A DNA stretch of 64,000 bases from Candidatus Limnocylindria bacterium (GCA_035708065.1 DASSTC010000029.1:7959-71958), one strand, 5' to 3'. Counted from the first letter of the stretch, positions 8,956 to 49,089 are shown. The notes: generated by a model from the sequence alone, not told the origin. Made by a program: numbers and translations.

Positions 8956-10659
8956 GTGTCAAGCCGGTTTGCCTCGTTCGCCCGCACGGCCGATGCACTG
9001 GCCGCCACGACCTCCAAGCTGCGCAAGCGCGACCTGCTGGCGGCCTACCTGCGCGAGCTGCCGGCTGACGACCTGCCGGTCGCCGCGACCTTCTTCGCGG
9101 GGCGGCCACTTCCCGGGGCATCTGACCGGCTGGGCCTTGGCGGCATGCAGGGGTCGGCGGCACTGCTGGCGGCATCGGGCGCCAGCGAGCAGCAGCTCGG
9201 GCAGGCGTACCTGCGGCACTCCGACTTCGGCGATGCCGCGGCCGAGCTCATCGGCGAGGCTCGCGGAGCACCGCTCACCCTGCGCGACGTGGCGGACGGC
9301 TTCGCGGCGATGTCGGTGGCCGCCAACAGCGAGCAGCGGATCGGGCTGATGACCGGGCTCTTCCAGCGTGCGACGCCGGCCGAGGCGCGCTATGTCGCGC
9401 GGATCGCCGGGCGCGAGCTGCGGATCGGGCTGCGCGAGGGACTGCTCGAGGAGGCGATCGCGGCCGCGTTCGAACGACCGATCGCCGACGTGCGTCGCGC
9501 GTTGATGCTCGTCGCGGAGCCGGGCGAGACGGCGACGCTCGCTCGCGAAGATCGACTGGACGAGGCAGCGCTGCACATCGGCCGCCCGATCCGCTTCATG
9601 CTCGCCACCCCGGTGGCCGACGCCGGCGAGGTGATGCGCCGCGTCGGCGGCGAGGCGTGGATCGAGGACAAGTACGACGGCATCCGCGCCCAGCTGCACC
9701 TGACGCGGGACGGCGCGCAGCTCTTCAGCCGGGACCTCAACGAGATCAGCGGGTCGTTCCCCGAGGTCATCGCCGCCGCGCAGGCGTTGGATCGTTCGCT
9801 GGTCATCGACGGCGAGCTCGTCCCGTGGAAGGAGGGCAGCGTCCTCGACTTCGCCTCACTCCAGACACGGCTCGGCAGGGTCAACCCGAGCGACCAGCTG
9901 ATCGCCGGCGTGCCGGTGGCGCTCGTCGCCTTCGACCTGCTGCACCTCGACGGCGGGGACCTGCTCGACACGACGCTGCGGCGGCGCCGCCACGCGCTCG
10001 AGGCGCTGCAGCTCCCCGAGCGCACCGCTGAGCGGATCCTCTACTCGCATCTCGAGATGGCGCGCTCGGCGGCCGAGGTCGACGCACGCTTCGACGAGGC
10101 GCGGGAGCGCCGCAACGAGGGGCTGATGATCAAGGATCCCGCATCGGTCTATCAACCCGGACGGCGTGGGCTGGGCTGGCTCAAGCTCAAGCGCCCGCTG
10201 TCGACCCTCGACTGCGTGGTGGTCGGCGTCGAGTGGGGCCACGGCAAGCGCCGCGGCGTGCTGTCGGACTACACGTTCGCCGTGCGCGAGACCGATGGCG
10301 ACCGGCTGCTGACCATCGGCAAGGCCTACACCGGCCTGACCGATGCCGAGATCGCCGAGATGACGTCGCGCTTCCAGGTGCTGACCGTGCGCGATTTCGG
10401 CCGGTACCGCTCGGTCGTGCCGGAGGTCGTGGTCGAGATCGCGTTCGACCGGATCCAGCGCTCCGCGCGCCACAAGAGCGGATATGCCCTCCGCTTCCCG
10501 AGGATCGTGCGGATCCGGACCGACAAGGGACCGGCGGACATCGACGACCTGGCCGCGGTGGAGCGCGTCTTCGCGCAGCAGGCGTCCGGGCGGATCCTGC
10601 TCGCCACCGGCGCGCGTGGGGAGACCGAGCGCATCGCGGCGACCGGCGAGACGGAGTAG
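8956..10659 (+). CDS. ATP-dependent DNA ligase (three-domain, Lig1/LigB-like)
   Basis: 567 aa. Adenylation motif I EDKYDGIRAQLH has an intact Lys. Also present: motif III LVIDGELV, motif IV NEGLMIKD, and motif V with the OB region (WLKLK). Confidence 0.9.
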   Translation: MSSRFASFARTADALAATTSKLRKRDLLAAYLRELPADDLPVAATFFAGRPLPGASDRLGLGGMQGSAALLAASGASEQQLGQAYLRHSDFGDAAAELIGEARGAPLTLRDVADGFAAMSVAANSEQRIGLMTGLFQRATPAEARYVARIAGRELRIGLREGLLEEAIAAAFERPIADVRRALMLVAEPGETATLAREDRLDEAALHIGRPIRFMLATPVADAGEVMRRVGGEAWIEDKYDGIRAQLHLTRDGAQLFSRDLNEISGSFPEVIAAAQALDRSLVIDGELVPWKEGSVLDFASLQTRLGRVNPSDQLIAGVPVALVAFDLLHLDGGDLLDTTLRRRRHALEALQLPERTAERILYSHLEMARSAAEVDARFDEARERRNEGLMIKDPASVYQPGRRGLGWLKLKRPLSTLDCVVVGVEWGHGKRRGVLSDYTFAVRETDGDRLLTIGKAYTGLTDAEIAEMTSRFQVLTVRDFGRYRSVVPEVVVEIAFDRIQRSARHKSGYALRFPRIVRIRTDKGPADIDDLAAVERVFAQQASGRILLATGARGETERIAATGETE

Positions 10660-13926: not shown

Positions 13927-14799
13927 ATGGCGCGATCGATGTGGAGGGGGGCGATCCAGTTCGGTCTGGTGACGATCCCGGTGAAGCTGTACCTGGCCAC
14001 CGAGACCGGCGGCATCGGCTTCAACATGCTGCACGCCAGCTGTCTGAACCGGATCCAGATGAAGATCTACTGCCCGTACCACGACGAGGTCGTGCCGCGG
14101 TCGGAGACGGTGCGCGGCTACGAGTACGCCAAGGGGCGCTACGTGGTGGTGACCGACGAGGACGTCGACTCCATTCCGCTCAAGACGCTGCGGGCCATCG
14201 AGATCGAGATGTTCGTCGATGCCCGCAACGAGGCGCATGGCGCGCAGTTCGTCAAGCAGGCGTACTACCTCGAGCCCGATGAGATCGGCCGCAAGGCGTT
14301 CTACCTGCTGAAGTCCGTCCTGGCCGATACGGGCAAGAGCGCGATCTGCAAGATCGTGCTCAAGGACCGCGAGCAGCTGGCGGCCCTCAACCCGTACTCC
14401 AGCACGATGCTGCTGACCACGCTGCACTGGCCCGACGAGGTCCGCTCGATCGAGGAGCTCACGCTGCCCGAGGACCAGGTCACGTTCAAGCCGGGCGAGC
14501 GCGCCATGGCCGAGCAGCTCGTCGCCTCGATGACCGGCGAATTCAGTGCCGACGACTACCGGGACGACTACCGCCAGGCCCTGATGGCCGTCATCGAGCG
14601 CAAGGTCTCCGGAGAGGCCCCGGAGCCGGCGGTGCGCGCCGAGCCGACGAACATCGGCGACCTCATGGCCGCGCTCGAGGCATCGGTCGCCGCCGCGCGC
14701 GAGAGCCGCGCGCGGGCCGCCGAGGCGCCGATCGAGGTGCCCGTGGCCGCGGCCGAACCGGAGCCCGCGCCCCGCCAGCGCCGCCGCAAGACCGCCTAG
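13927..14799 (+). CDS. ku: Ku protein (non-homologous end joining)
   Basis: N-terminus MARSMWRGAIQFGLVTIPVKLY, typical of bacterial Ku, with a basic/Ala-rich C-terminal tail. Confidence 0.9.
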   Translation: MARSMWRGAIQFGLVTIPVKLYLATETGGIGFNMLHASCLNRIQMKIYCPYHDEVVPRSETVRGYEYAKGRYVVVTDEDVDSIPLKTLRAIEIEMFVDARNEAHGAQFVKQAYYLEPDEIGRKAFYLLKSVLADTGKSAICKIVLKDREQLAALNPYSSTMLLTTLHWPDEVRSIEELTLPEDQVTFKPGERAMAEQLVASMTGEFSADDYRDDYRQALMAVIERKVSGEAPEPAVRAEPTNIGDLMAALEASVAAARESRARAAEAPIEVPVAAAEPEPAPRQRRRKTA

Positions 14800-20528: not shown

Positions 20529-21329
20529 TCAGGACGCGGCGGGAGTCGTGGACGGGCTGACCGAGGCGCTCGGCGTCGCGCTGCGACTCGGGCTCGGGCT
20601 GGGGCTGGGGCTGGGTGCCGGCTCGCCGGGCAGGCCCGCGAGCATGGCCGCGTTGATCTTGGCATCGGTGCCGATCATCAGGAAGACGTAGTCGTCCGCG
20701 GCCCACGTGTAGATCATCGTCCCGGCGGCGGTGGCGTTGTCCTCGGGACGGACCCAGACCGTGTTGCCGCCGACCGTCTGGCGCTTCCACGCCTCGGGGT
20801 GCAGGCCGGCGATCCCGACGTAGCGGCCGGCCGTGGCGAGATACGGGCGCAGCTCAGCAGTCTTCACCGGCTGTCCCTCGACGCGCATGGCGTAGAGCGA
20901 CAGCTTGCGTGGCTCGACGTAGGCGAGCGCCAGGGAACGGAATCGGCTGCCGATCGACCCGAACGCCTGCGCCACGTCACCGGGGGTCAGGCCGTACTCG
21001 TCGGGCGGAGGCTTGACGACCGGCGAGCCGGCGACGGTGTCCGGAATGACGGCCTCCAGGGCTGCGTCCGGCGGGTTGGTGTACGACGGCGTCGGGGACG
21101 GGGTGGGAACCGGCGTGGGGGTCGGCGCCGGCGTGGCGGAGGCTGCGGCCGAGGCCGGCAGCGAGACGCTCGCGGAGCCGGTCGGCGTGGTGCTCCCGCA
21201 GGCGGCGAGCAGCAGGGTGATGACCAGAAGCGCCACGGCGCCGGCGGACACGCCGGGGTTGGTCGGGCGCAGCGCGACAGAGCGAGGGATCCGCATGGGA
21301 GCGGCGATCATAGCATCGCCGCTGGTCAC
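20529..21329 (-). CDS. Lipoprotein of unknown function
   Basis: Signal peptide with lipobox LLLAAC, plus Pro/Thr/Ser-rich linkers at both ends. The GTG start overlaps the upstream gene's stop (GTGA). Confidence 0.6.
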   Translation of the reverse strand: MTSGDAMIAAPMRIPRSVALRPTNPGVSAGAVALLVITLLLAACGSTTPTGSASVSLPASAAASATPAPTPTPVPTPSPTPSYTNPPDAALEAVIPDTVAGSPVVKPPPDEYGLTPGDVAQAFGSIGSRFRSLALAYVEPRKLSLYAMRVEGQPVKTAELRPYLATAGRYVGIAGLHPEAWKRQTVGGNTVWVRPEDNATAAGTMIYTWAADDYVFLMIGTDAKINAAMLAGLPGEPAPSPSPSPSPSRSATPSASVSPSTTPAAS

Positions 21330-24300
21330 GCTGCCCCGGCCACCTCGTCGTCGGGCGGGGGAACGAGCGAGGTCGGCTCGGCGGGGCTCGAAGCGGTTTC
21401 GGAGGGCTGCCGATCGGCGCGGCGGCGACGAGGCGCCGTCGGTCGTGCCGGTGCGGCGGCGGCGGCGAGCGCGTCGAGCACGTCGGGGCGGAAGCGGCGC
21501 TTCTCGGCTCGCAGCTCGGTGAGGGCGACCGAGCGCGACAGCCGCTTGCCGCCGACGCCGTTGGTCATGACGTCATAGGCGTTCGCCGCAGCGACGATCT
21601 GCGCCGAGATCGGGCGGGTGCGCGCCTCCCGGCTGCGCCGCGCCCAGTGCATCACATCGTCGACGGCGGCCAGCGACGGGATGCCGTGCAGCTCTCCGGT
21701 GGTCACGAGCTCCAGGCCGTGCAGCCGCGCGGCGAGCTCCACGTTGCGCGCGTCGTTCTCGTCGCAGCCGAGGCGGCGGGCCATGGCCGCGGCCAGCCGG
21801 CCGACACGGTTGGCGTGCGCCCAGCTCGCCGCGCCCCGCGCGTCGAGCGTGCGGGCCATTGACAGCAGCGCGTCGCGGATGGCCGGGTCGTCGGTATCGG
21901 CGCCGATCCGCGTGGCGTGCTCGACGAGATGCTCGACGGCTCGCGGTTCGTCGGCGCGGAGCAGCGCGGCGCGTGCCAGCTGGTCGAGCGTGCCGCGCAG
22001 ATCGCGCATCTCGCTCGGGACGTCGGCGGCGAGCACCACGCGATCCTCGCCGGACTGCTTCCCGAAGTAGAGGGCGGTATCCGCCGCGCCGATGAGCGCG
22101 TTCTTGTCGTCGGCATCGCTCGGGTGGCTGGCCACACCGACGGTGATCGTCACCGGGCTCAGCTCCTTGGCGGTCAGCCGCGCCACCGCGCGGCGCACCC
22201 GCTCGCCGATCGTGGCCCCGGTGGCGGCATCGACGCCGCGCAGGATCAGGGCGAACTCGTCGCCGCCGTAGCGGTAGACACCATCGTTGGCGCGCGCCGA
22301 CTCACGGATCGCCGCGCCGATGGCGTGGAGCAGCGCGTCGCCGGCGGGGTGTCCCAGCCGGTCGTTGTACGCCTTGAAGTTGTCGAGGTCCATCATCAGC
22401 AGCGCGACCGGCTCGTCGGCATCCGCGGCCTGCTCGAGCACCTCGGCCAGGTTGAGCTGGAAGGCGCCGTGGTTGCCCAGCTCGGTCAGGGCATCGGTCT
22501 GACCCCGAACGACGACGGCGTGGTGCGTGTCGGCATTACGCAGGGCGATCGAGGCCTGGCCGGCGAACAGCTTCACCAGCTCGAGGTCGTTCTGGCTGAA
22601 GTAGACCTCCGGACCGCCAACGCGGCTGATGTTCAGCGAGCCGGTGACGATTCCGTCGCTGATCAGCGGGACGACGATCAGTGCCTCCGGATCGTCCGGC
22701 GTACCGGGGATCTGCGCGACGCGCGGGTCGGCCAGTGCGTCGTTGGCCAGCACCGCCTGGCGGTGGTCGACCGCCCAGCCCATCAGGCCGTGACCGAACG
22801 GCACGATGTAGCGCTGCACCTGCTCGGCGTGCCGTTCGCGGGCAAGCACCGGCAGGAGCACCTGCTGGGTATGGTCCGCGCGGTAGATCGACAGGTTGTC
22901 GTAGTGGACGACGCTCTTCAGGCTGTCGGCGATCAGCTCGAAGACGCTCTTCGGGTCGAGGGTGCCGAGCAGCCGATCGTTGATCTCCAGCAGCCGCCGC
23001 TGAGAGTCGAGCTGGCGCGCCAGCTCGGCCGACTGCTCCGCCAGCCGCTCGTAGGCAGTGGCATTCGCCATCGCCTGCGCCGCGTAGCCGGCGAAGATCT
23101 TCATCGTCTGCAGGTCGTCCTCGGTGAACTGGTTGAGCCCCAGCTTCGAAAGGGCGAGGACCCCGAGCGCACGCTCTTCGTAGAGCATCGGGACCACGAG
23201 CATCGACTCGTCGATGTCATCGGTCCCGTCGATCGTCAGGCCACGCTCGTCCGCCAGCGCGTCGTTGATGAGCAGCGCCTCGCCGGTCTCGGCCACGGTG
23301 CCGGTGAACGAGCCGGGGCCGATGTCGACCTTCAGCCGCTCCTCGAAATCGCCGTCACCCAGCAGGCGGCGGGTGTAGGCCACCGGCTCGCAGGTGCGCG
23401 TGGTCCAGTCGACGGTGTAGATCCGGATGTCGTGGTACGCGGCCAGCGTGCTCGCCTCGGCGACGATCGCTTCGGCGATCGCCTTGACATCGGTCAGGCG
23501 GTTCAGGCGCGCCGAGAGGTCCTGGATCGACTTCATGCGTGCCGCCTGCTCCGCGGCGGACCGATACAGCCGCGCGTTGCTGATGGCGACCGCCGCCTGG
23601 TTGGCGAAGGCCTGCGCCAGCGCGAGCTCGTCCTCGGGCCACTCGTGGTCACGGCCGTGGTACAGGCCCAGGACGCCGACCGCCCGGTCGTGGGACAGCA
23701 GCGGCACGATGCAGGCAGTGCGGATCCCGTCGCGCTGGTAGGTCTCGCGCATGACCCCGACACTGCCGCGACTGTCGGCATGGTCGACGACGTAGGTCCG
23801 CCGATCGCGGACGGCGTAGATGCCCAGGGAGGGGCTTTCCAGCGTCAGCTCGGCGACCGATGCGTGGAACTCGTCGCTGATGCCCCGCGAGGCCGCGGGT
23901 TCGAACGGGTGCTCGGGGTCGTCGGTGATGAGCCACAGGCCGGCCTTGTCGGCGTCGAACAGGAGCCGGGTACGGTCGATGATGTCGCTCAGCACCACGT
24001 TCAGGTCGAGCTTGCCGGTGAGCTCCTGGGTGATGCCGCGCAGCGCCCGCGCCCTGGTCAGCTCGCGGCGGACGCGGCTCAGCAGGCGCGCGCTGTGGAT
24101 GGCGACCGCGATGGCGTTGCCGGCGGTGCGCAGGAACGGCAGGTGGCCGACACTCAGCACGCCACCCGGCTCGTCCGCGACGAGCAGCTGGCCGACGATC
24201 TCGCCGGCGGCGCGCAACGGCAGCCGAACCTCGGTGAGCGACGACGCGTGGTCGGTCGCGCGCTGGACCGATTCGGCGAGCGGCTCTCCGTCGCCCTCGG

Positions 24301-24742
24301 CGACGTCGATGCTGGTCGGCGGCGTCATCCGGTAGCCGGCGTGCGTCTCGAGCGCCAGCGATCCGTTGCGAACAAGGTAGATGGCGATGCGCGGGTAGTC
24401 GAAGCGCGAGCGGATCGCCTCGACCGCGACGCGGCAGACCGCCGAGACGTTCGAGGCAGCGGCCGCTCCCTGCGCCAGCCGCGCGAGGACGGCGAGCTCG
24501 GCGTCGCGCTGCTCGTCGGCGACCGGCAGGGCCGGCTCCGCCTCGGCACCCTCGGCGAGCAGGCGCTCGACATCGCCGCGCCGATAACGACGGTCACCGC
24601 GCGGGTTGATGCGGTACGCCGTCAGCCGGCCGGCCTCGGTCCAGGCGCGGATCGTGTTCGGGTGAACGCCGAGCAACGCCGCCGCCTGGGCGACGCCGAT
24701 CAGGGCGTCGTCCGCGACCCGGTCGCGAAGGGGGTTCGCCAC
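21326..24742 (-). CDS. Multidomain signalling protein: excisionase/MerR-type HTH, multiple GAF domains, GGDEF diguanylate cyclase, degenerate HD(-GYP)-like domain
   Basis: 1138 aa. HTH at IGVAQAAALLGVHPNTIRAWTEAGRL. At least four GAF-like repeats. GGDEF is intact (RYGGDEFALIL) with an RxxD I-site (RAND) 5 aa upstream. The C-terminal HANRVG...ARLHGLE lacks the Asp of the HD dyad. Confidence 0.8.
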   Translation of the reverse strand: MANPLRDRVADDALIGVAQAAALLGVHPNTIRAWTEAGRLTAYRINPRGDRRYRRGDVERLLAEGAEAEPALPVADEQRDAELAVLARLAQGAAAASNVSAVCRVAVEAIRSRFDYPRIAIYLVRNGSLALETHAGYRMTPPTSIDVAEGDGEPLAESVQRATDHASSLTEVRLPLRAAGEIVGQLLVADEPGGVLSVGHLPFLRTAGNAIAVAIHSARLLSRVRRELTRARALRGITQELTGKLDLNVVLSDIIDRTRLLFDADKAGLWLITDDPEHPFEPAASRGISDEFHASVAELTLESPSLGIYAVRDRRTYVVDHADSRGSVGVMRETYQRDGIRTACIVPLLSHDRAVGVLGLYHGRDHEWPEDELALAQAFANQAAVAISNARLYRSAAEQAARMKSIQDLSARLNRLTDVKAIAEAIVAEASTLAAYHDIRIYTVDWTTRTCEPVAYTRRLLGDGDFEERLKVDIGPGSFTGTVAETGEALLINDALADERGLTIDGTDDIDESMLVVPMLYEERALGVLALSKLGLNQFTEDDLQTMKIFAGYAAQAMANATAYERLAEQSAELARQLDSQRRLLEINDRLLGTLDPKSVFELIADSLKSVVHYDNLSIYRADHTQQVLLPVLARERHAEQVQRYIVPFGHGLMGWAVDHRQAVLANDALADPRVAQIPGTPDDPEALIVVPLISDGIVTGSLNISRVGGPEVYFSQNDLELVKLFAGQASIALRNADTHHAVVVRGQTDALTELGNHGAFQLNLAEVLEQAADADEPVALLMMDLDNFKAYNDRLGHPAGDALLHAIGAAIRESARANDGVYRYGGDEFALILRGVDAATGATIGERVRRAVARLTAKELSPVTITVGVASHPSDADDKNALIGAADTALYFGKQSGEDRVVLAADVPSEMRDLRGTLDQLARAALLRADEPRAVEHLVEHATRIGADTDDPAIRDALLSMARTLDARGAASWAHANRVGRLAAAMARRLGCDENDARNVELAARLHGLELVTTGELHGIPSLAAVDDVMHWARRSREARTRPISAQIVAAANAYDVMTNGVGGKRLSRSVALTELRAEKRRFRPDVLDALAAAAAPARPTAPRRRRADRQPSETASSPAEPTSLVPPPDDEVAGAA

Positions 24743-38943: not shown

Positions 38944-39663
38944 ATGCCCAACGACCGCCTGCCCACCCCCGAACGCGTCCTGGTCGTCGCCGCGCATCCG
39001 GACGACATCGAGTTCGGGGCGGCGGGCACCGTCGCGCGCTGGATCGACGAGGGAGCGACGGCCCATTACCTGGTCGTCACCCGCGGCGACAAGGGGAGCG
39101 ACGATCCATCGGTCGACGTGGCGGAGCTCGCGGTGCTGCGCGAGCGGGAGCAGCGCGCCGCCGCCGCCGAGATCGGCGTATCGGGCGTCGACTTCCTCGA
39201 TGAGCCGGACGGCCAGGTGGAGGCGAGCCTGCGGCTGCGCGAGCGGATCACGTACGCGATCCGCGCCCTGCGTCCCGAGGTGGTGATGACCCACGACCCG
39301 ACCGTCCTGTTCGTCAACAACGAGTGGGTCAACCATCCCGACCACCGCGCCGTCGGGCAGGTCACCGTCGACGCCGTCTTCCCGACGGCCCGCGACCCGC
39401 TGAACTTCCGCGAGCACCTCGACCGCGGGCTCGAGCCATGGAAGGTTGCCGAGCTGTTCATGTGGTCGACTAACGAAGCGAACCAGATCGTCGACATCTC
39501 CGACACGCTCGACCGCAAGATCGCGGCGCTCGAGCAGCATCGCAGCCAGTTCCGTGACTTCCCCGAGACGGCGCGCTGGCTGCGCCGCCGCTCCGAGGAG
39601 CTCGGCGAGCGCGCCGGCTACCGGGCCGCCGAGGGATTCCGACGGGTGATGCTGGCGCGATGA
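38944..39663 (+). CDS. PIG-L/LmbE-family deacetylase
   Basis: 239 aa from ATG 38944 with VVAAHPDDIEFG and HPDHRAVG metal-site motifs. Confidence 0.8.
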   Translation: MPNDRLPTPERVLVVAAHPDDIEFGAAGTVARWIDEGATAHYLVVTRGDKGSDDPSVDVAELAVLREREQRAAAAEIGVSGVDFLDEPDGQVEASLRLRERITYAIRALRPEVVMTHDPTVLFVNNEWVNHPDHRAVGQVTVDAVFPTARDPLNFREHLDRGLEPWKVAELFMWSTNEANQIVDISDTLDRKIAALEQHRSQFRDFPETARWLRRRSEELGERAGYRAAEGFRRVMLAR

Positions 39664-41693
39664 GGCGTCTGGCTGCCGTTCGAGTGCTCGCCACGTCGCT
39701 CGTCGTCGCGCTGCTCGCCACCGCGTGCGGCCCGACGCAGCCGACGCCGACCCCATACCCGAGCGGGCCGCCCCCGGCCTCGCCGAACGCCGCGCGCGAG
39801 ATGGCCGACGCCTTCGTCGCCGCCTGGAGCCGTGGCAACTACGACGCGATGTGGCAGATGCTGGCGCCCGCCGACCGCGCCCGCCACTCGAGGGCCGAGT
39901 TCGCGGCGCTCTACAGGCAGTTCGCCGACCTCGTACGCCTCACCGACCTGACGGCGACGAGCGGGACGCCCGAGCCGATCGCGCTGCCGCCGCAGCCACG
40001 TCCCGACGACTTGCCGCCACCCTCGCCGACACCGGCGCCCGCGTCGAGCGGGTCCGCCGGCGCCGCGCCGACGCCAACCGCCTCGCCGGGGCCGTCCGGC
40101 CCACCGCCGGTGTTGCCCGGGCCGGTGCCCGGCATCGGCGTGCCGCTGCGGCTCTCGCTGACCACCGACGTGTTCGGTGCCGTGAGCCTGGACCGGGAGC
40201 TGCCGTTCAGCGAGGGCGCGAATGGCTGGCAGGTGCGCTGGAGCCCGGCGCAGCTCTTCCCCGAGCTCGGCGACGCCGGCACGCTGAAGCTGAAGCGAAC
40301 ACTGCCCTTCCGGGGAAAGATCGTATCGGTCTCCGGCGACGTCTTTGCCGAGACGCGCAAGGATGGCGCGCGGGTCTACCCGCAGGAGTGGCTGGCGGGC
40401 CAGACGATCGGCTACGTCGGCGAGGTCACCGCCGAGGATCTCGACACGCTGTCGGCGAAGGGCTATCGCGCCGGCGACGTCATCGGTCGGTCGGGCCTGG
40501 AGGCAGGTGCGGAGGACCTGCTGCGCGGCCAGCCGGGCTTCGTCCTCAGCGCCGTCCCCGCCGAGGGTGACGCCGTGACCGTCCTCGAGAAGCAGATGGT
40601 TCCGGGCGCGGATGTCACGATCACCATCCGTCCCCGGCTGCAGGCAACTGCCGAGGCGGGCCTGCGCGTTCATCCCAACGGCGCCACCGTGGCGCTCGAC
40701 CCGGCGACCGGCGACGTCTGGGCGCTGGCCAGCGCCCCGGCGTTCAACCCCAACTCGATGACGATCGGCACCACGCTCGGCGGCGCGAAGCTGGCCCGCG
40801 GAACCCAGGCGCAGCGCCTGAACCGTGCCGTGCTGGGGACCTACCCGGCGGGCTCCTCTTTCAAGCCGTTCACCCTGGCCGCGGCCCTGGAGACCGGCGT
40901 CGCGACGCCGCAGAGCCGCGTCGCCTGCCCGCCGACCTGGCCTTTCTCGAGCGACTTCACCGCGCACAACTACAAGGACCACTCGCTGCCGGGCCTGGTG
41001 ACCCTCGTCCAGGCGATGGCTTTCAGCTGCAACACGACTTACATGCCGCTCGCCCTGGAGGTCTATCGCAAGGATCCGACGGCGTTGACCGAGCTGCTGC
41101 GTGACTTCGGCTTCGGTTCCAAGACCGGGATCCAGCACCTGGCCGAGGCGGCGGGCGTCGTTCCGGACGACAGCTACCTGTCGAAGCTCGACCCACCGCG
41201 CGAGTACGGCGCCTTCGACCAGATCCAGCTTGCGATCGGGCAGGGCCTCTACGTCGGCACGCCGCTGCAGCTGGCGAATGCCTACGCGGCGATCGCCGAC
41301 GGCGGCACGCGCTGGGTGCCACGGCTGGTCACCCAGGCCACCCTGCCCGACGGCACGGTCGTCGAGACGATCGATCCCACGGTCGCCACGAAGCTGCCCG
41401 TCACGCAGAAGCACCTCGACTACATCACGGAGTCGCTGAAGGGCGTCGTGAACCTGTCGTATGGGACGGGCTTCCCGGCGTTCCGTGGCTTCGGCATCCC
41501 GGTCGCCGGCAAGAGCGGCACGGCCGAGACCGGCACTCCCGATCCGCACGCCCTCTTCCCGGCGTTCGCGCCGGCGGACAAGCCGGAGATCGTGGTCGCG
41601 ACGATCCTGGCCTACGTGCCGCTCGGCACCGGAGGCGATCGGGCCGCGCCGCTGGTCCGCCAGGTCATGGCGCGCTACTTCTCGAGCCGATGA
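39660..41693 (+). CDS. Penicillin-binding protein (class B transpeptidase) with lipobox and NTF2-like N-terminal domain
   Basis: 677 aa, ATGA overlap with the previous gene. Lipobox LLATAC. Transpeptidase motifs SSFKPF (SxxK), SCN (SxN) and KSGTAE (KTG-like). Confidence 0.85.
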   Translation: MRRLAAVRVLATSLVVALLATACGPTQPTPTPYPSGPPPASPNAAREMADAFVAAWSRGNYDAMWQMLAPADRARHSRAEFAALYRQFADLVRLTDLTATSGTPEPIALPPQPRPDDLPPPSPTPAPASSGSAGAAPTPTASPGPSGPPPVLPGPVPGIGVPLRLSLTTDVFGAVSLDRELPFSEGANGWQVRWSPAQLFPELGDAGTLKLKRTLPFRGKIVSVSGDVFAETRKDGARVYPQEWLAGQTIGYVGEVTAEDLDTLSAKGYRAGDVIGRSGLEAGAEDLLRGQPGFVLSAVPAEGDAVTVLEKQMVPGADVTITIRPRLQATAEAGLRVHPNGATVALDPATGDVWALASAPAFNPNSMTIGTTLGGAKLARGTQAQRLNRAVLGTYPAGSSFKPFTLAAALETGVATPQSRVACPPTWPFSSDFTAHNYKDHSLPGLVTLVQAMAFSCNTTYMPLALEVYRKDPTALTELLRDFGFGSKTGIQHLAEAAGVVPDDSYLSKLDPPREYGAFDQIQLAIGQGLYVGTPLQLANAYAAIADGGTRWVPRLVTQATLPDGTVVETIDPTVATKLPVTQKHLDYITESLKGVVNLSYGTGFPAFRGFGIPVAGKSGTAETGTPDPHALFPAFAPADKPEIVVATILAYVPLGTGGDRAAPLVRQVMARYFSSR

Positions 41694-41765
41694 CCGCGCC
41701 GCGCGGCATGGTTCTCGCTCGTGTCGACGAAGGCGCGGCCAGCGTCCGCCGAGCGCGCCCGATCT

Positions 41766-41795
41766 TTGACACGCCGAGCGCGGGGCGGGTAGCAT
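41766..41795 (+). promoter_or_regulatory. Sigma-70-type promoter (TTGACA-N18-TAGCAT) of the bc-complex operon
   Basis: TTGACA at 41766-41771 and TAGCAT at 41790-41795, ~70 nt upstream of the GTG at 41863. Confidence 0.55.
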
Positions 41796-41862
41796 CGGTC
41801 AGCCGCTCCTTCGACCTGTTGTCTTCGCGTGGAACCCACCTGGAGAGCGACCGTCAACGCCC

Positions 41863-43836
41863 GTGATCTCTGAGAATGCGATTCCGCTGAGGTTCCAGAC
41901 CGCCGAGGTCGGCGTCGACTGGCTTCAGTGCAACATCGAGTGCCAGGAAGGCTGCCCGGTCAACACGAACTGCCGCGGCTACCTGATGCTGGCCGCCGAG
42001 GGCCGGTTCGAGGAGGGCTACATCCTCGCGCGCGACCCGAACCCGGTGGCGGCCATCTGCGGCTACGTGTGCAGCCATCCCTGTGAAACCGCGTGCCGCC
42101 GCGCCGACATCGACAAGCCACTCTCGATCCGCGCCATGAAGCGCTTCCTGGTCGACTGGCATTACAGCAACAACATGCCGGACAACGTGCAGGTCATGCC
42201 CGCCACGGGCAAGACCGTGGCGGTGATCGGCGCCGGTCCCGCCGGGCTCAGCGTGGCGAAGGAGCTCGCCACCTACGGCCACGAGGTGCATGTCTATGAC
42301 GCGCTGCCGTCCGGCGGCGGGACCACGCTGATTGGCGTGCCGGCCTTCCGCCTGCCGCGCGACGTGATCGAGCTCGACGTGAACTGGGTGGCCAAGCACG
42401 GCGTGCAGTTCCACTGGAGCGTCGAGATCGGCCGCGACATCACCATGGACCAGCTCCGCGAGCGCCACGACGCGGTCGTGGTGGCGACCGGCTGCATGTT
42501 CCCGGTGGCCATGAACGTCCCCGGCGAGGAGTCCGAGGGCGTCATCTACGGGGTCGACTTCCTGAAGCGCGCGAACCTGGGCCAGGAGCAGTGGGTCGGC
42601 GAGCACGTGGTCGTCGTCGGCGGCGGGTACACCGCCATGGACTCGTCGCGCACGGCACTGCGCCTGGGCGCCAAGACGAGCACGATCGTCTACCGCCGCG
42701 GCCCGGAGGAGATGGTGGTCGACGAGGAGGAGCAGCACGAGACCCTCTTCGAGGGCGTCCAGTTCGAGTTCTTCGCTTCGCCGGTCGACATCGTCGCCGG
42801 ACCGGATGGGCACGTCTCCGGGATCACGTTCCAGCGCACCCAGCTCGGCGCGCCGGACGCCACCGGCCGCCGTTCGGCGGAGCCGATCCCCGGCAGCGAA
42901 TTCACGGTTCCCTGCGACATGGTCATCCCGTGCACCAGCCAGGCGTCGGACAACAACGTGCTCGGCGAGTACGGCGCGCACCTGAACCGCCACCTGGGCG
43001 TCACCGACCCGCGCAGCGTGCTCGAGGGCGGATCGGTCTCCAGCTGGCGCACGCCGCCGCTGAATGGCTCGACCCCGACCGATGCGGACGGCAACAAGCT
43101 CAACGACCTCGCCTTCAACATGAAGCGGGGCAATGTCGTCACCAACGCCGATACGTTCCAGACCAGTGTCGACGGCATCTTCGCCTGCGGCGACTTCGTC
43201 ACCGGCCCGGCCACGATCATCGAGGCGGCCGGCCGTGGCCGATCCACCGCTCGCTCGGTGGATCGCTGGCTCGCCGGCGTCCGCGGCGCCGACCTGGAGG
43301 AGCTGCCGGTCATCAATCGCGCGACGGTCACCGTGGCGCTCGAGCACGACATGCCACCGAACTACGAGGCGATCGAGCGACAGCACATTCCCATGGCGCC
43401 GCCGGAGCTGCGCCGGGACTTCACCAGCCTGGTCGAGGTCGGCTACGACAGCCGCAGCGCGATCGCGGAGGGCAGCCGCTGCCTGCAGTGCAATCACAAC
43501 ATCGCGATCGATGGGCCACGCTGTATCCTGTGCGGACTCTGCGCCGACGTCTGCCCCGAGGGCGTGATCTACATGATCGACAAGGCGCAGGTCGGCGGCG
43601 ACGACCCGGAGATCGATCTCTTCCAGTCGTGGCCACGCGGGATTGCCATGATCATCGACGAGGAGCGTTGCATCCGCTGCAACCTCTGCGTCGAACGATG
43701 CCCGGTCAACTGCATCACCATGGATCGGCTCGAGCTTGAGCGATTCACGCCGGACGGGAAGGTTCTGTTGGAGAGCTACAAGGACAACGTTCTGGGGCAG
43801 ATCGGCCAGGAGGCTGGTCCGGTGGTGGAGCGATGA
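41863..43836 (+). CDS. GltD/NfnB-like NAD(P)H-dependent flavo-iron-sulfur oxidoreductase fused to a C-terminal 2x[4Fe-4S] ferredoxin domain
   Basis: 657 aa. N-terminal Cys clusters ([11 protein letters not shown]; [14 protein letters not shown]), an FAD fold ([11 protein letters not shown]), an NAD(P) fold ([12 protein letters not shown]), the FACGDF motif, and then [12 protein letters not shown] and [12 protein letters not shown]. The stop overlaps the cytochrome b ATG (ATGA, 43833-43836). Confidence 0.85.
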
Positions 43837-44567
43837 GCGTTCCCGGCCCGGGCGACCTGGTCCGTTACGTCAAGTCCTCGCAGGTATGGCGCAGCCTCTT
43901 CCGGCAGCCCTATCCGACGACGAGCCGCACGCGCTCGCTGGCCGTCTTCAACAACGTCTTCCTGCACCTGCACCCGGTGCGCGTCAAGCGGCACGCCGTC
44001 CGGTACACGTACACGTTCTGCCTGGGCGGGATCAGCTTCTTCCTGTTCCTGGCGCTGACCGTCACCGGCCTGTACCTGATGTTCTTCTACGTGCCGTCGG
44101 TGAGCCGCGCCTACCAGGACATCCAGGCGATCTCGACATCGGTCGCCTTCGGCGATCTCGTGCGCAACATGCATCGCTGGGCGGCGCACCTCATGGTGCT
44201 GACCGTCTTCCTGCACATGATCCGCGTCTTCTACCACGGCGCCTACAAGCCGCCGCGCGAGTTCAACTGGGTCATCGGCGTCGTGCTGCTGCTGCTGACC
44301 CTGCTGCTCAGCTTCACCGGCTACCTGCTGCCGTGGGATCAGATCGCCTTCTGGGCCATCACCGTCGGTACGCAGATGGCGCAGTACGCACCGCTGCTGG
44401 GTTCGCAGACGAGCTTCTTCCTGCTGGGCGGCATCGAGGTCGGCCAGAACACGCTGCTGCGCTTCTACGTGCTGCACGTCATCTTCCTGCCGCTCATCGC
44501 CGCCATCCTGATGATCGTCCACTTCTGGCGCATCCGGAAGGACGGCGGGATCTCGGGGCCGGTCTAG
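43833..44567 (+). CDS. Cytochrome b6-type subunit (N-terminal four-helix half of cytochrome b)
   Basis: 244 aa. Helix B His pair in [16 protein letters not shown] (14 residues apart) and helix D His pair in [17 protein letters not shown] (15 apart, the b6-type spacing). Conserved Cys in FCLGGISF (heme ci-type position). Confidence 0.9.
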
Positions 44568-44571
44568 GCAC

Positions 44572-45192
44572 ATGACCATCGAGAAGCGACCGAACGCCAC
44601 CGCCGACAAGAACGCGCCGAGCCAGGCGCCGGCACGCGCACCGCTGGCCGAGCCGACGCTGCCTGGCCCGAAGCTTCCGGGCCCGCCCGGGGTGCCCGGC
44701 ACGGAGCGCTTCCGCCTGCTCGCCTACGTCAAGCAGGAGTCGATGGTCCGCGTCGACAAGCGACCGGACGAGACGGTGCTGGTCTGGCCACACCTCCTAC
44801 GGGCCGAGTTCCTCATGGCGGCCCTGATCAGCGCGCTGCTGGTGATCGCCTCGTTCCTCATCAAGGCGCCCCTCGAGGAGATGGCCAACGCCGGCGTCAC
44901 GCCGCACGTCGCCAAGGCACCGTGGTACTTCCTCGGCCTGCAGGAGATCCTCAGCTACTTCAACCCGACGGTCGCGGGCGTCATCGTGCCGACGTTCTAT
45001 CTCGCTGGCCTCGCGATCATCCCGTTCGTCGACCGCTCCCCGTACAAGGCGGCCCGCGACCGCAAGCTGATCTGGATCTTCTTTCTGACACTGATGATCA
45101 CCGGCCTGCTGGTGACGTTCATCGGCTCGTTCTTCCGCGGCCCGGGATGGAACTGGGTCTGGCCATGGGAGGGGCTCTTCTTCAACCTATGA
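44572..45192 (+). CDS. Cytochrome bc-complex subunit IV (C-terminal half of cytochrome b, PetD-like)
   Basis: 206 aa with three TM segments. The Qo-loop segment KAPWYFLGLQEIL aligns with the PEWYF region of PetD. Confidence 0.85.
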   Translation: MTIEKRPNATADKNAPSQAPARAPLAEPTLPGPKLPGPPGVPGTERFRLLAYVKQESMVRVDKRPDETVLVWPHLLRAEFLMAALISALLVIASFLIKAPLEEMANAGVTPHVAKAPWYFLGLQEILSYFNPTVAGVIVPTFYLAGLAIIPFVDRSPYKAARDRKLIWIFFLTLMITGLLVTFIGSFFRGPGWNWVWPWEGLFFNL

Positions 45193-45836
45193 CCACGCAC
45201 ACCTCCTACGGCGAGGTCCACGGACCGAACGTCGGCGAGATCAGCCGCCGCAGCTTCATGCGACGCATGCTGGGGGTCGGCATGGGCCTCCTCAGCCTCG
45301 AGTTCCTCGGCGGGACGCTCGCCTTCCTGTGGCCGAACCTGACCGGTGGCCTCGGCGGCCAGATCGAGATCGGCACCGCCGCGGACATCAACTCGCAGCA
45401 GCCAGCCTGGAAGACCGGCGAGCCGTACATCTACACCAAGGCGCGCCTCTTCTTCGTCAACGTGCCGGCCGCGAAGTCACTGGTCGACGGCTCGAACCAG
45501 ACGGTCGAGGACCCCGGCGACAAGATCTCGCCCGATCTGGAGCCGGCCGACCGCTCCGTCCTGGCGCTGTATCGCAAGTGCCCGCACCTCGGCTGCCAGA
45601 TCCCGCAGCTGTGCGACAAGAGCCACTGGTTCGAGTGCCTGTGCCACGGCAGCAAGTACACCGTGCTCGGCGAGAAGCGTGACGGTCCGGCGCCGCGCGG
45701 CATGGACCGCTTCGACGTGACCATGAACGGCGACGTCTACACGGTCGATACCTCGAAGATCGTCACCGGCCCGCCGATCGGCACCGCGACGTTCGACAGC
45801 CGTGGCCCCGGCGACATGCAGCACTGCACGGGCTGA
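45189..45836 (+). CDS. Rieske [2Fe-2S] subunit with Tat-type signal anchor
   Basis: 215 aa from ATG 45189 (ATGA overlap). SRRSFMRRMLG twin-Arg motif, and cluster boxes CPHLGC and CLCHGS. Confidence 0.9.
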   Translation: MTTHTSYGEVHGPNVGEISRRSFMRRMLGVGMGLLSLEFLGGTLAFLWPNLTGGLGGQIEIGTAADINSQQPAWKTGEPYIYTKARLFFVNVPAAKSLVDGSNQTVEDPGDKISPDLEPADRSVLALYRKCPHLGCQIPQLCDKSHWFECLCHGSKYTVLGEKRDGPAPRGMDRFDVTMNGDVYTVDTSKIVTGPPIGTATFDSRGPGDMQHCTG

Positions 45837-45841
45837 GCGGG

Positions 45842-46642
45842 ATGCGACTCAAGACGCTTGGCGTGTTCGTCGTCACCCTGCTCGCCCTGTTCACCCTGTT
45901 CTACTGGATGACCGATGGGCCACGTCGCGCGGAGGCGACCACGACCCAGGAAGACGAGCTGCTCAACTACGGCAAGGTCGTCTTTGCCAACGACCCGGCC
46001 AATCCGGCGTCGGCCGGCTGCGCGCGCTGCCACGGCGACGACGGCAAGGGCGGCAAGGTGCCCAACGATCCCAACGGCGCCATCGCGCCGAACCTGCACA
46101 GCGCAAGCATCGCCAGCAAGCTGAAGGTCAATCCCGACTACGTCCACTTGGCGGTGAGCTACGGCGGCGTGGTCGTTTCCGGCAACGTCAACTCGCCGAT
46201 GCCCGCCTGGAGCACCGACGTCGGCGGCCCGCTGACGGTCCAGCAGATCGACGCCGTCGTCGCACTGGTCACGAGCTGGGCCGAGGCTGCGCCGCCCGCT
46301 CCGGCGGAGGTGCCGAACACCGCCGAGGCCGGGCAGCAGGTGTACAACTCGTCCGGCTGCGCCGGCTGCCACGGCGCACAGCTCGAGGGTGGCGTCGGCC
46401 CCGACCTGCAGACCATCGGCAGCCAGCTGGTCACCGAGAACCTGCCCGTTCCGCCGTCCGGGCTCGACCAGATGAAGGCGGACTACGCCGCGGATCCGAA
46501 GGACTTCCTCGACAAGTGGATCCGGGACTCGGCGAACAACTACAACAACGGCACGCCGACCGGCATGCCGCCGCATCCGCCGGACCAGATGAGCGACTCG
46601 CAGCTGCAGGCGCTCATCACCTTCCTGATGGAGCAGAAGTAG
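45842..46642 (+). CDS. Membrane-anchored dihaem cytochrome c
   Basis: 266 aa with an N-terminal TM and two CxxCH motifs (CARCHG, CAGCHG). Confidence 0.9.
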   Translation: MRLKTLGVFVVTLLALFTLFYWMTDGPRRAEATTTQEDELLNYGKVVFANDPANPASAGCARCHGDDGKGGKVPNDPNGAIAPNLHSASIASKLKVNPDYVHLAVSYGGVVVSGNVNSPMPAWSTDVGGPLTVQQIDAVVALVTSWAEAAPPAPAEVPNTAEAGQQVYNSSGCAGCHGAQLEGGVGPDLQTIGSQLVTENLPVPPSGLDQMKADYAADPKDFLDKWIRDSANNYNNGTPTGMPPHPPDQMSDSQLQALITFLMEQK

Positions 46643-47250
46643 TGAGCGTCTACCGGCCCAGCCGCCAGCAGGGCGTCTTCGAGCGGCCGATCGCCTTCGC
46701 CGACGACTTCATGAACTGGATGCTGTACGGCAAGGAGACCTGGCTCGTCGCGCTGCTCAAGGGCGTGCCGCTGTTCATCTACGTCTACTTCCTGCTGACG
46801 TACGTGCCGAACTACGTCTACTACCTCGTGACGCAGTACATCCCCTTCCTGAAGTTCAGCGAGGACGTCGGCTTCCTGATCGCCATGTCGGTAGCCGGCG
46901 GCAACTTCGTGGTGCTCATCATCCTGGCGCTGTGGACCCAGGGCGCTCGCGGCCGCCGCGGCTTCGCGTGGAGCCTGATCCGCATCCTCGACCTGCTGCA
47001 GTACGTCGGCATCGTGCTGCTGCTCAGCCCGCTGCTGCTCTTCAACCTCGGTGGGGGAACGTTCGTGCCGACCACGCCGGCACAGGCCGAGAACCCGTTC
47101 CCGCTCCAGGCGCTGGTCCTCGGCGCGATCGGCTTCGTCATCGGGCTTGCGGCGCTCGGCTACATGTACCTCGAGTACCGGCGCGTCACCGCGAGCGACG
47201 CGCGGGCGGCGGAGGCGGCCTCCCGCTCCGCGGCGCTCACCACCGGCTGA
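46642..47250 (+). CDS. Polytopic membrane protein, possible accessory subunit of the bc complex
   Basis: 202 aa from a GTG that overlaps the cytochrome c stop by 1 nt, with ~4 TM. No family recognised. Confidence 0.5.
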   Translation: MSVYRPSRQQGVFERPIAFADDFMNWMLYGKETWLVALLKGVPLFIYVYFLLTYVPNYVYYLVTQYIPFLKFSEDVGFLIAMSVAGGNFVVLIILALWTQGARGRRGFAWSLIRILDLLQYVGIVLLLSPLLLFNLGGGTFVPTTPAQAENPFPLQALVLGAIGFVIGLAALGYMYLEYRRVTASDARAAEAASRSAALTTG

Positions 47251-47600
47251 TCGCACCCGACGTCCGGCGGCTCCTGGCGGCACACCTCACCTGGTCGGCG
47301 CTGGTCGTCGCCGGCGTGGCGCTCCTGCTGTGGACCGATGCCTCCGCCGCGTGTCCGCCGGGCGGTCCGCTCGATTTCGGCGACTGCGCGGCGATCCGTC
47401 CGTTCGTGATCGGGATCGGCGTCACCGCGTCCGCGCTCTACGTCGTCGGGCTGTCGGCAGTGCTGTGGTGGGTTGCCGGGTTGCGTGCCCGTCGCGTGGC
47501 CGATGCACGCGCCGCGCGCGACTGGTATCTGCTCGCTGCGGGCATCGGTCTGGCGATTGCACCGTTGCTGGCATTCACGCTGCTCTCCGCCCTTCGCTAG
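47247..47600 (+). CDS. Small membrane protein (start uncertain)
   Basis: The C-terminal ~115 aa of the frame show 3 hydrophobic segments. There is no in-frame ATG; candidate starts are CTG 47247 or GTG 47316. Confidence 0.3.
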   Translation: MIAPDVRRLLAAHLTWSALVVAGVALLLWTDASAACPPGGPLDFGDCAAIRPFVIGIGVTASALYVVGLSAVLWWVAGLRARRVADARAARDWYLLAAGIGLAIAPLLAFTLLSALR

Positions 47601-47625
47601 CATTGGACCCACTGGAGGCCGATTC

Positions 47626-49089
47626 ATGACGTTCCGCTCAGCCGACGACCTGCGCAACCGCCTCTCGGGGATCGCCCGCATCGACGGGGAGCGCCTCGAG
47701 ATCAGCGACGAGGCGCGGCTGCGCGACGAGCTCATGGACGAGCTGGTCTTCGAGGCGGTGTTCAACGACGACGCCGCGCTGCGCGATGCCTGCCGCTGGG
47801 TGATCTGGTCCGCCAGCCAGGCGCTCGGCTCGGGATCGGCGTCGATCCAGGACCTGTACATGGCCCGCGGCCGCGAGGAGTTCGACCCGACCCGGTTCAC
47901 CGTGCCGGCGGTCAACGTGCGGGCGAGCACCTACCTCACCGCGCGGCAGGCGTTCGCCGCCGCGCGCGAGCGTGATGCCGGGACGCTGATCTTCGAGATC
48001 GCCAAGTCGGAGATGGCCTACACCGAGCAGCGACCGGCCGAGTACGCGGCGGTGATCCTTGGCGCCGCCATTCGCGAGCGCTGGCCGGGTCCGGTCTTCC
48101 TGCAGGGCGACCACTTCCAGTTCAACGTCAAGAAGTGGGCCGCCGATCCGAAGGCCGAGATGGAAGGCCTGCGCGACCTCACGCGCGAGGCGATCGCCGC
48201 GGGGTTCTGCAACATCGACATCGACTCGTCGACGCTGGTCGACCTGTCGCTGCCGACCGTTACCGAGCAGCAGCAGGTCAACGCCGACAACACCGCGTCG
48301 CTGACGCAGCTGATCCGCTCGCTCGAGCCGGCCGGGGTGACGATCAGCATCGGCGGCGAGATCGGCGAGGTCGGCAAGGAGAACTCGACGGAAGCTGAGC
48401 TGCGCGCCTACCTCGACGAATACGATCGCCGTCTCGCAGCCGGTGACGGCGGGGCGCCGAGCGGGATCAGCAAGATCAGCGTCCAGACCGGCACCTCGCA
48501 CGGTGGCGTGCCGCTGCCGGACGGCAGCATGGCGCCGGTGAGCATCGACTTCGACACGCTGCGCCGCCTCTCCGCGCTGGCGCGTCACGAGTACGGGCTC
48601 GCCGGCTGTGTGCAGCACGGTGCCTCGACGCTGCCGGACGAGGCGTTCCACCACTTCCCGGCGAACGGCACGGCCGAGATCCACCTGGCGACCGGGTTCC
48701 AGAACATCCTGTACGACGCCGGCGGCCTGCCCGCCGAGCTGAAGGCCGAGATGATGGCCTGGTGCCGCGACAACCTCGCCGACGAGCGGACGCCGGGGCA
48801 GACCGACGAGCAGTTCCTCTACAAGACGCGCAAGAAGGCGATCGGACCGTTCAAGCGCCAGCTGTGGACCTTGCCCGATGCGGCCGCTGCCGAGATCGCC
48901 GGGCACCTGCGCCGTAAGTTTGACCAGCTGTTCGACGAGCTCGGCATCGCCGGCAACCGCTCGTTGGTCGAGCGCTACGTCGAGGCGCCCGACCTGCCGC
49001 GGCCGCTGCCCCCGGCCCTGGGCGGCCAGGAGCGCACGGCGGTCGCCGCCGGTGCGTCGGTCTTCGAGGGAGACGAGTCGGGGGAGTAG
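47626..49089 (+). CDS. Class II (metal-dependent) ketose-bisphosphate aldolase family protein, long form
   Basis: 487 aa from ATG 47626 (GGAGG upstream). Metal/active-site contexts FLQGDHFQ, QTGTSHGG and CVQHGAST. Confidence 0.7.
   Translation: MTFRSADDLRNRLSGIARIDGERLEISDEARLRDELMDELVFEAVFNDDAALRDACRWVIWSASQALGSGSASIQDLYMARGREEFDPTRFTVPAVNVRASTYLTARQAFAAARERDAGTLIFEIAKSEMAYTEQRPAEYAAVILGAAIRERWPGPVFLQGDHFQFNVKKWAADPKAEMEGLRDLTREAIAAGFCNIDIDSSTLVDLSLPTVTEQQQVNADNTASLTQLIRSLEPAGVTISIGGEIGEVGKENSTEAELRAYLDEYDRRLAAGDGGAPSGISKISVQTGTSHGGVPLPDGSMAPVSIDFDTLRRLSALARHEYGLAGCVQHGASTLPDEAFHHFPANGTAEIHLATGFQNILYDAGGLPAELKAEMMAWCRDNLADERTPGQTDEQFLYKTRKKAIGPFKRQLWTLPDAAAAEIAGHLRRKFDQLFDELGIAGNRSLVERYVEAPDLPRPLPPALGGQERTAVAAGASVFEGDESGE

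Follow-up and report, generated by a model that had tools for sequence, protein, structure and literature searches.

The window analysed here is a 64,000-nucleotide stretch of DNA of a Candidatus Limnocylindria bacterium (GCA_035708065.1, DASSTC010000029.1:7959-71958) with a G+C content of about 70%, and the genomes most closely related to it were assembled from metagenomes and carry the labels Candidatus Limnocylindria or Chloroflexota. Seven nearly spacerless genes (A to G) lie on its plus strand at 41,863–47,600, between a penicillin-binding-protein (PBP) gene and an aldolase-like gene, and they encode an iron-sulfur flavoprotein followed by the subunits of a Rieske/cytochrome b complex. 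Gene A (41,863–43,836, GTG start) encodes the flavoprotein, a soluble protein of 657 residues, and its stop codon shares 4 nt (ATGA) with the start of gene B (43,833–44,567), which encodes a cytochrome b6 of 244 residues. Gene C (44,572–45,192, 206 residues), 4 nt after B, encodes subunit IV; gene D (45,189–45,836, 215 residues), overlapping C by 4 nt, the Rieske [2Fe-2S] protein; and gene E (45,842–46,642, 266 residues), 5 nt after D, a dihaem cytochrome c. Two membrane proteins follow, namely F (46,642–47,250, 202 residues, GTG start), which has 1 nt in common with the stop codon of E, and G (about 47,262–47,600, about 112 residues), about 11 nt after F and with an uncertain start codon (the first start past the F stop is the GTG at 47,262).

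A promoter-like, sigma-70-like site, TTGACA-18 nt-TAGCAT (41,766–41,795, plus strand, 10 of 12 matches), is found in the 169-nt gap 3' of the PBP gene, with the GTG of gene A 67 nt downstream. There is no second such site in 41,500–47,900, where shuffled sequence gives a mean of 0.5 sites. An earlier note, made from the sequence alone, had described a near-consensus promoter ahead of the first gene and an overlap of the flavoprotein stop codon with the ATG of b6, and both descriptions hold; its statement that all junctions overlap or are at most 5 nt apart is right for A to F and wrong for G, where the gap is larger.

In Pfam terms protein A consists of a Fer4_20 domain (residues 21–104), a Pyr_redox_2/Pyr_redox region (118–324) and a 4Fe-4S dicluster domain (553–617), and no membrane helix is predicted. 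The N-terminal iron-sulfur (FeS) domain is of the NfnB/GltD type, with cysteines C23/C27/C31 and C66/C70/C74/C78. The flavin adenine dinucleotide (FAD) fold begins with GAGPAG at residue 123, and the fold for nicotinamide adenine dinucleotide or its phosphate, NAD(P), with GGGYTA at residue 253; the latter carries a YRR motif after the second Rossmann strand, which we take to be the NADPH-type signature of the GltD/NfnB family. Two CxxCxxCxxxCP motifs (C554/557/560/564 and C603/606/609/613) form the C-terminal 2x[4Fe-4S] domain, so that Pfam and the translation agree with the cysteine clusters, dinucleotide folds and dicluster end that the earlier note had read in a 657-residue first gene. Residues 21–375 are NfnB/GltD/NfnC-like, with PDB matches at 1e-62 to 1e-97 (4ylf_B 3e-79, 5jca_L 3e-67, 2vdc_G 1e-62), and NfnABC (9bov/9bp5) and FwdF (5t5i) are also among the PDB relatives. 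An exact-sequence look-up of protein A in public assemblies returned no record.

Two further features of protein A can be pointed out. Just before the first ferredoxin motif there is an R539-C540-x2-C543 pair (near 43,404–43,554), which does not vary among 43 diverse members of the family or in a further 34; it is surplus to both [4Fe-4S] clusters, which have eight cysteines already, and it may coordinate another metal or be structural. The idea that this pair is a circularly permuted GltD RCxxC which completes the N-terminal clusters was dropped, since the segment matches only polyferredoxin/NuoI-type motifs in the PDB, and the closest flavoprotein relatives likewise begin their FeS domain with C-x3-C-x3-C-P, without RCxxC. 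The FAD domain also has a lineage-specific insert of about 45 residues (about 375–425; 42,985–43,135), which is absent from the anammox-type (anaerobic ammonium oxidation) homologue discussed below and is of low confidence in an AlphaFold2 model.

Protein B matches Pfam Cytochrome_B (PF00033) at 1.7e-48 and has four transmembrane helices by hydropathy. Its haem ligands, H114/H128 (H-x13-H) and H215/H230 (H-x14-H), have the b6-type spacing that the earlier note had given, as read from the translation, and they are invariant in relatives. The conserved cysteine claimed for the haem ci position is there as well: Cys63, in TFCLGG, is in the alignment the counterpart of Cys35 in spinach and Chlamydomonas b6 (YCLGG). 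All 77 Limnocylindria have this cysteine, as do 29 of the 62 metagenomic members, and in the acidobacterial type another residue takes its place; not being universal in the family, it cannot make haem ci an obligatory docking or entry point.

The b6 has, in addition, an n-side N-terminal extension of 59 residues with invariant W19, R24, N41 and His45, and an R235/K236 pair at its C-terminus. His45 is invariant in all 147 scorable flavoprotein-linked b6 proteins, equal in this to the four canonical haem ligands, and a flavoprotein-less paralogous cytochrome b at the same locus of Ca. Angelobacter (L002) is without the extension histidine. In AlphaFold3 models of an anammox complex, an additional haem b was placed between two copies of Kustd1481 via His62 (His43 in Kuste4571), with Arg266/Lys267 close to its propionates (PMC12954380). 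The window residues His45 and R235/K236 correspond in the alignment to H38 and R242/K243 of an anammox-type b6 (L085), numbered H62 and R266/K267 in the longer gene call of L086, and the spacing of 204 residues from the His to the Arg/Lys pair is identical in the anammox-type b6 and Kustd1481 (H62 to Arg266). On account of this alignment and the identical spacing, we equate His45 with Kustd1481 His62, and R235/K236 with Arg266/Lys267.

The remaining subunits are as the earlier note had them, with Pfam domains and motifs in the translations for subunit IV, a Rieske protein dependent on twin-arginine translocation (Tat) and a dihaem cytochrome c. Subunit IV matches Cytochrom_B_C (PF00032), has three predicted helices and a proline-rich N-terminal region, and carries the Qo motif APWY at residues 116–119; as APWY is found in 130/130 cases scored, the complex belongs to the uncharacterised "APWY clade" of Kao and Hunte. 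Protein D matches Pfam Rieske and shows a Tat-type SRRSFMRR motif, box I CPHLGC and box II CLCHGSKY with a Ser and a Tyr, a pair associated with redox potentials above +300 mV in Kuste4569 (PMC12954380); its top PDB matches are the two Kuenenia Rieske proteins, 9rk3 and 9rk4. Box II (45,636–45,659) has Leu for the near-universal Pro of CPCHG in 68/72 Limnocylindria genomes, and all other lineages examined have CPCHG. Protein E contains two Pfam cytochrome c domains, CARCH and CAGCH motifs and an N-terminal anchor helix, and weakly matches the actinobacterial QcrC model. Hydropathy gives about four transmembrane helices for F and about three for G; neither has a Pfam or NCBIfam family match or any similarity to operon subunits from the other phyla examined, and they are conserved only in Limnocylindria (F with 47–85% identity in 65 loci, G with 44–78% in 59). 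This conservation means that they are real genes, so the "one or two" extra membrane proteins of the earlier note are two.

The operon is strongly conserved within Limnocylindria. A scan of one genome per species with one narrow motif, RCL[QM]C[QND][LHY]NI, from a six-sequence alignment of the C-terminal domain of A, found a relative in at least 592 species-representative genomes. For conservation, the best 80 of these were used, all of them Limnocylindria-type, so that breadth is taken from the other searches given below. The order PBP-A-B-C-D-E-F-G-aldolase is kept in all 80 wherever the contig extends, and b6 lies directly downstream of A in 79, the lone exception being a contig that ends 83 nt past A; co-occurrence of the flavoprotein gene with the complex in related genomes, which the earlier note had made a test of its reading, is thus what the synteny survey finds. 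Identity across the 80 species is 82–90% for A and 76–95% for b6 (44–75% for the flanking PBP), and the 4-nt overlap is available for A/b6 in 73/77 genomes and for subunit IV/Rieske in 57/68. A gene string kept through all 80 species-level genomes is not a chance arrangement. It should be mentioned that seven contigs (L008, L009, L023, L026, L032, L058 and L064) that are 88–94% identical to the Limnocylindria operon are binned as Steroidobacteraceae, Actinomycetota, Zixiibacteriota or Gaiellales, most likely by mis-binning.

Outside this set, a search of 50%-identity cluster representatives gave about 65 clusters with the full A architecture, with named members in Limnocylindrales, Dehalococcoidia, Nitrospinota, Ca. 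Angelobacter/Terriglobales and a Deltaproteobacteria bacterium. Ten distant contexts were inspected individually, and seven of these are Rieske/b6 operons. The order is A-Rieske-b6-IV-multihaem c in Ca. Angelobacter (L002; Acidobacteriota, GCA_035307585.1) and in L004, A-b6-...-Rieske-multihaem c in the Deltaproteobacteria RBG_16_49_23 type (L003 and L088), and Rieske-b6-A-IV-936-aa multihaem c in the anammox type (L085 and L086, one context); the other two are a Limnocylindrales operon (L089) and a Dehalococcoidia one (L172). The 4-nt overlap of the flavoprotein gene with the next gene of the complex is seen also in L002, L088 and L089. The remaining three flavoproteins stand alone: L087 (Nitrospinota, GCA_016194325.1) beside a nitroreductase gene, L090, and L091 with a rubredoxin-like N-terminus. 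In a metagenome scan seeded with a consensus sequence (80 diverse loci), b6 adjoins the flavoprotein gene in 63 loci, in three gene orders, while 7 flavoproteins are clearly alone and 10 loci are too short; in a rough neighbour-joining tree the stand-alone proteins form a group separate from the linked ones. Most members of the flavoprotein family are therefore paired with b6, though not all, and the pairing occurs across several phyla and in three gene orders; that it is kept through gene-order shuffling argues for functional coupling.

Some of these distant loci have features of their own. The L002 contig (8001–17935) holds two tandem Rieske/cytochrome b operons, each after a CarboxypepD_reg/cupredoxin-like gene, of which the first has the flavoprotein and a split b6/subunit IV, and the second an unsplit cytochrome b of 439 residues, without flavoprotein or His45-type extension. 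A response-regulator receiver domain is fused N-terminally to the flavoprotein of L172 (1429–3621), and a gene for a cyclic-nucleotide-binding (cNMP-binding) protein abuts or overlaps the flavoprotein gene in L003 (7531–8004) and L088 (7516–7989), where a molybdopterin oxidoreductase/NrfD/cytochrome c cluster lies upstream. A gated module is suggested by the regulatory domains that two lineages have fused to the flavoprotein or encoded beside it.

The closest described systems are two complexes of the anammox bacterium Kuenenia stuttgartiensis, Kustd1480-1485 and Kuste4569-4574, which have a putative NAD(P) oxidoreductase subunit (PMC12954380). A 63-residue Kuenenia Rieske fragment (PDB 9rk3), used as a query, did not return the exact Kuenenia protein, but led to a 92% identical protein on the anammox-type contig L085, which served as a proxy; the operon on this contig lies beside an ammonium transporter gene and has the gene order of Kustd1480-1485 in PMC12954380. 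Its Kustd1483-type flavoprotein and protein A are 37% identical over residues 9–623, the C-terminal module included (E = 6e-129), and the two b6 proteins are 59% identical, the N-terminal extension included. The comparison with anammox that the earlier note had drawn is therefore one of true homology and not of analogy. Common to both are the flavoprotein in the operon with an identical domain order and with the PDB relatives used for the Kuenenia models (PMC12954380), the b6/subunit IV split, the haem ci cysteine, the APWY motif, the Ser in Rieske box II (CLCHGSKY in the window, CPCHGSKY in 9rk4) and the b6 extension.

The two also differ. The anammox cytochrome c is hexa- or octahaem (936 residues in L085), with or without an HAO-like partner, whereas that of the window is an anchored dihaem protein; subunit IV has three predicted helices in the window and five in L085; F and G are extra; and the gene order is A-b6-IV-Rieske-c in the window, as opposed to Rieske-b6-A-IV-c. 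The host is of a Chloroflexota lineage without an anammoxosome, and no nitrite or hydrazine chemistry is encoded nearby. As far as can be judged from sequence comparison, the operon is a Limnocylindria member of a large family that takes in both anammox complexes, and its complex is predicted to have the same n-side core, with a simpler p-side (dihaem c), a three-helix subunit IV, the added F and G, and another physiology.

To the cytochrome b6f complex of cyanobacteria and chloroplasts (PDB 6rqf, 1q90, 1vf5) the b6 core of the window matches at E = 9e-52, and the two have in common the H-x13-H/H-x14-H spacing, the haem ci cysteine, a separate four-helix b6 and three-helix subunit IV, and, in the Rieske protein, the CxH...CxCH boxes together with the disulfide cysteines. 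Unlike b6f, the window has a dihaem class I cytochrome in place of cytochrome f, no PetG/L/M/N (F and G match no family), APWY in place of PEWY, and a b6 N-terminus that is 28 residues longer, its first 59 residues being without alignment. Plant b6f is reported to bind FNR on its n-side, and the concept of a pyridine-nucleotide flavoenzyme at that place would be common to both; in the window, however, it is an operon-encoded NfnB/GltD-type protein, and in b6f a peripherally recruited plant-type FNR. The menaquinol:cytochrome c reductases of Firmicutes, Heliobacteria and Actinobacteria also have a split b6/IV, a haem ci cysteine and an anchored dihaem c, but to our knowledge their operons contain no pyridine-nucleotide module, and the window differs from them further in the His45 extension of b6 and in the Ser/Tyr high-potential Rieske signature. 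With the Geobacter sulfurreducens extHIJKLMNOPQS cluster (ExtO Rieske, ExtP cytochrome b, ExtQ membrane protein; PMC5877670) the window complex shares the APWY clade of Kao and Hunte. Subunit IV scores only weakly on memb_ExtQ (54.8 bits against a cut-off of 150), and no porin, rhodanese or multihaem ExtKLMNS genes of that cluster are found in the window.

Taken together, the repeated neighbourhood, the coupled genes and the conserved b6 extension make it likely that the flavoprotein is a wired partner of the Rieske/b6 complex. To hypothesize, the complex would be composed of b6, subunit IV, the Rieske protein, the dihaem c, F and G, with an NADP(H)-binding FeS flavoprotein on its cytoplasmic n-side face. 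The wire would start at NAD(P)(H) and FAD, continue over the two N-terminal FeS clusters and then the two C-terminal [4Fe-4S] clusters, and reach first an extra haem held on His45 between two b6 copies and then haem bN, with haem ci joining where it is present; it is probably reversible. The direction that we prefer is quinol oxidation at Qo with bifurcation, in which one electron would take the exergonic branch through the Rieske centre and the dihaem c to a terminal oxidase, and the other would pass through the b haems and the flavoprotein to NADP+. Following the argument made for the anammox complexes (PMC12954380), a high-potential Ser/Tyr Rieske centre together with a low-potential quinone would make haem bP low enough for the reduction of NAD(P)+. 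For this whole statement, the wired n-side flavoprotein including the direction from quinol to NADP+, we estimate a probability of roughly 0.5. A more far-reaching version, that Limnocylindria and Acidobacteriota, as abundant aerobes of soil and freshwater, make NADPH from quinol by bifurcation at Qo, driven by O2 respiration over the dihaem c branch and with a fifth haem between the monomers on His45 passing electrons to the flavoprotein, is offered only tentatively.

Several observations weigh against this reading. The b6 scores 308.5 bits on the NCBIfam model NF040969 (cytb_ExtP), over its equivalog cut-off of 290 bits, and no flavoprotein is described for the Geobacter ext cluster (PMC5877670); this b6 clade is therefore not exclusively flavoprotein-linked, and the His45 region may be typical of the clade as such and not serve for docking. 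The existence of stand-alone flavoproteins of the same architecture (L087, L090, L091 and at least 7 of the 80 metagenomic loci) means that the flavoprotein can work without a b6 partner and that adjacency alone is no proof of co-assembly. The AlphaFold2 monomer of A, built on an alignment of 34 sequences, has a mean predicted local distance difference test score of 59, with the FeS domains below 50, and is thus too weak for cluster-to-cluster geometry. As to the direction, the thermodynamic argument assumes menaquinone, and the rationale for an uphill reduction of NADP+ is weakened in an aerobic heterotroph with no obvious shortage of NAD(P)H.

For these last two reasons, electron flow in the opposite direction through the same assembly stays a strong rival, which we consider possible. 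The flavoprotein would then be a built-in NAD(P)H dehydrogenase feeding the n-side haems through the FeS chain and reducing quinone at Qi, so that the complex would act as an NAD(P)H:quinone or NAD(P)H:cytochrome c oxidoreductase, a hard-wired form of the FNR/ferredoxin:plastoquinone reductase idea of b6f. All the structural evidence fits this equally well, electrons would pass strongly downhill from NAD(P)H on their way to menaquinone, and the ordinary need of a host class described as soil and freshwater heterotrophs is the oxidation of NAD(P)H; the haem ci cysteine at the Qi site of all 77 Limnocylindria is in line with it, and the receiver domain of L172 and the cNMP-binding gene of L003 and L088 would suit a gated input. 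However, such a flow would, as the anammox authors argue, waste about 250 mV in a cell that can use a coupled complex I, and would leave the Ser/Tyr high-potential signature of the Rieske protein with no obvious purpose, and since the acidobacterial members are without the haem ci cysteine, an input to Qi centred on haem ci is not general.

It seems unlikely that the flavoprotein works on its own as a soluble NAD(P)H-dependent oxidoreductase, with a ferredoxin-like or small-molecule acceptor, and is co-transcribed with the complex and not bound to it. The stand-alone homologues and the lack of a predicted membrane helix in A would agree with such an enzyme, but the neighbourhood is found again in four or more phyla and in three gene orders, the 4-nt coupling of A with b6 is kept in 73/77 Limnocylindria genomes, A is conserved to the same degree as b6, the stand-alone members fall apart from the linked ones in the tree, and the invariant b6 extension goes with linkage, being missing from the flavoprotein-less paralogue. 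Far less probable still is that gene A encodes GltD, the small subunit of an NADPH-dependent glutamate synthase, or NfnB of an NfnAB enzyme, with the partner encoded elsewhere, a glutamate synthase subunit being an identity that the earlier note had itself considered. The N-terminal approximately 370 residues are clearly NfnB/GltD-like by their PDB matches, having the Fer4_20 FeS domain and the FAD and NAD(P) Rossmann folds in common with NfnB, GltD and NfnC (4ylf_B, 5jca_L, 2vdc_G, 9bov_A), and relatives are labelled "glutamate synthase beta subunit-like" by JGI. Nevertheless, A scores under every curated GltD cut-off (TIGR01317, 200 against 448; TIGR01318, 257 against 483; TIGR01316, 309 against 472), and it has the C-terminal module of about 170 residues with R-C-x2-C and 2x[4Fe-4S], which is foreign to canonical GltD and NfnB (456–482 residues in the PDB, with no dicluster extension). 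No GltB or NfnA gene was found anywhere in the 64-kb window, and the conserved genomic partner of A is instead the membrane cytochrome b6.

Regarding the surroundings of the operon, the upstream PBP gene occupies 39,660–41,693, and the downstream gene (47,626–49,089, 488 residues), which is class II fructose-bisphosphate-aldolase-like, begins 25 nt past gene G. No terminator-like site is found in these 25 nt, the aldolase-like gene is syntenic in 58 Limnocylindria loci at 65–82% identity, and it may be co-transcribed with the operon. Elsewhere in the window, and unrelated to the operon, there are ATP-dependent DNA ligase and Ku genes (8,956–10,659 and 13,927–14,799), a non-homologous end-joining pair about 3 kb apart, a PASTA-domain Ser/Thr kinase (4,518–6,143) and a large MerR-GAF-GGDEF protein (21,326–24,742). 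On the Nitrospinota contig L087 (10891–17833), diversity-generating-retroelement-like genes (reverse transcriptase, Avd-like, mtd-like) lie near the flavoprotein, beside phage baseplate and tail genes.

Rieske/cytochrome b complexes are the textbook quinol:cytochrome c or plastocyanin oxidoreductases, and in the literature searched, an n-side pyridine-nucleotide module has been proposed only for the two anammox complexes. No flavoprotein-Rieske/cytochrome b cluster outside anammox is described in that literature, which does not extend to some subscription reviews. In this respect, the view of the earlier note that the arrangement has been discussed only for anammox bacteria stands, but as a statement of rarity it does not, since Chloroflexota, Acidobacteriota and Deltaproteobacteria-type members carry it. 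The anammox flavoprotein and its b6 partner are thus part of a large family that spans several phyla, very abundant soil lineages included. What is new here is that the design is widespread, that the pairing is evolutionarily sticky, and that the histidine of the putative extra haem is as well conserved as a haem ligand.

These results also bear on annotation. The flavoprotein genes are mislabelled as "FAD-dependent oxidoreductase", "glutamate synthase beta subunit-like" or "formate dehydrogenase beta subunit", and automatic naming of the b6 as "selenite/tellurite reduction operon b-type cytochrome ExtP" would mislead, although it does link the clade to Geobacter extOPQ. An anammox curiosity becomes a general and testable design, for which the simpler versions, with a dihaem c and no HAO partner, are candidates for biochemistry and cryo-electron microscopy (cryo-EM). 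His45 and the predicted five b-type haems per dimer offer a handle for telling NAD(P)+ reduction by bifurcation at Qo from NAD(P)H feeding Qi. If true, quinol-driven synthesis of NADPH would be a general form of "reverse electron transport" that runs without complex I and without a membrane potential, and not a speciality of anammox bacteria.

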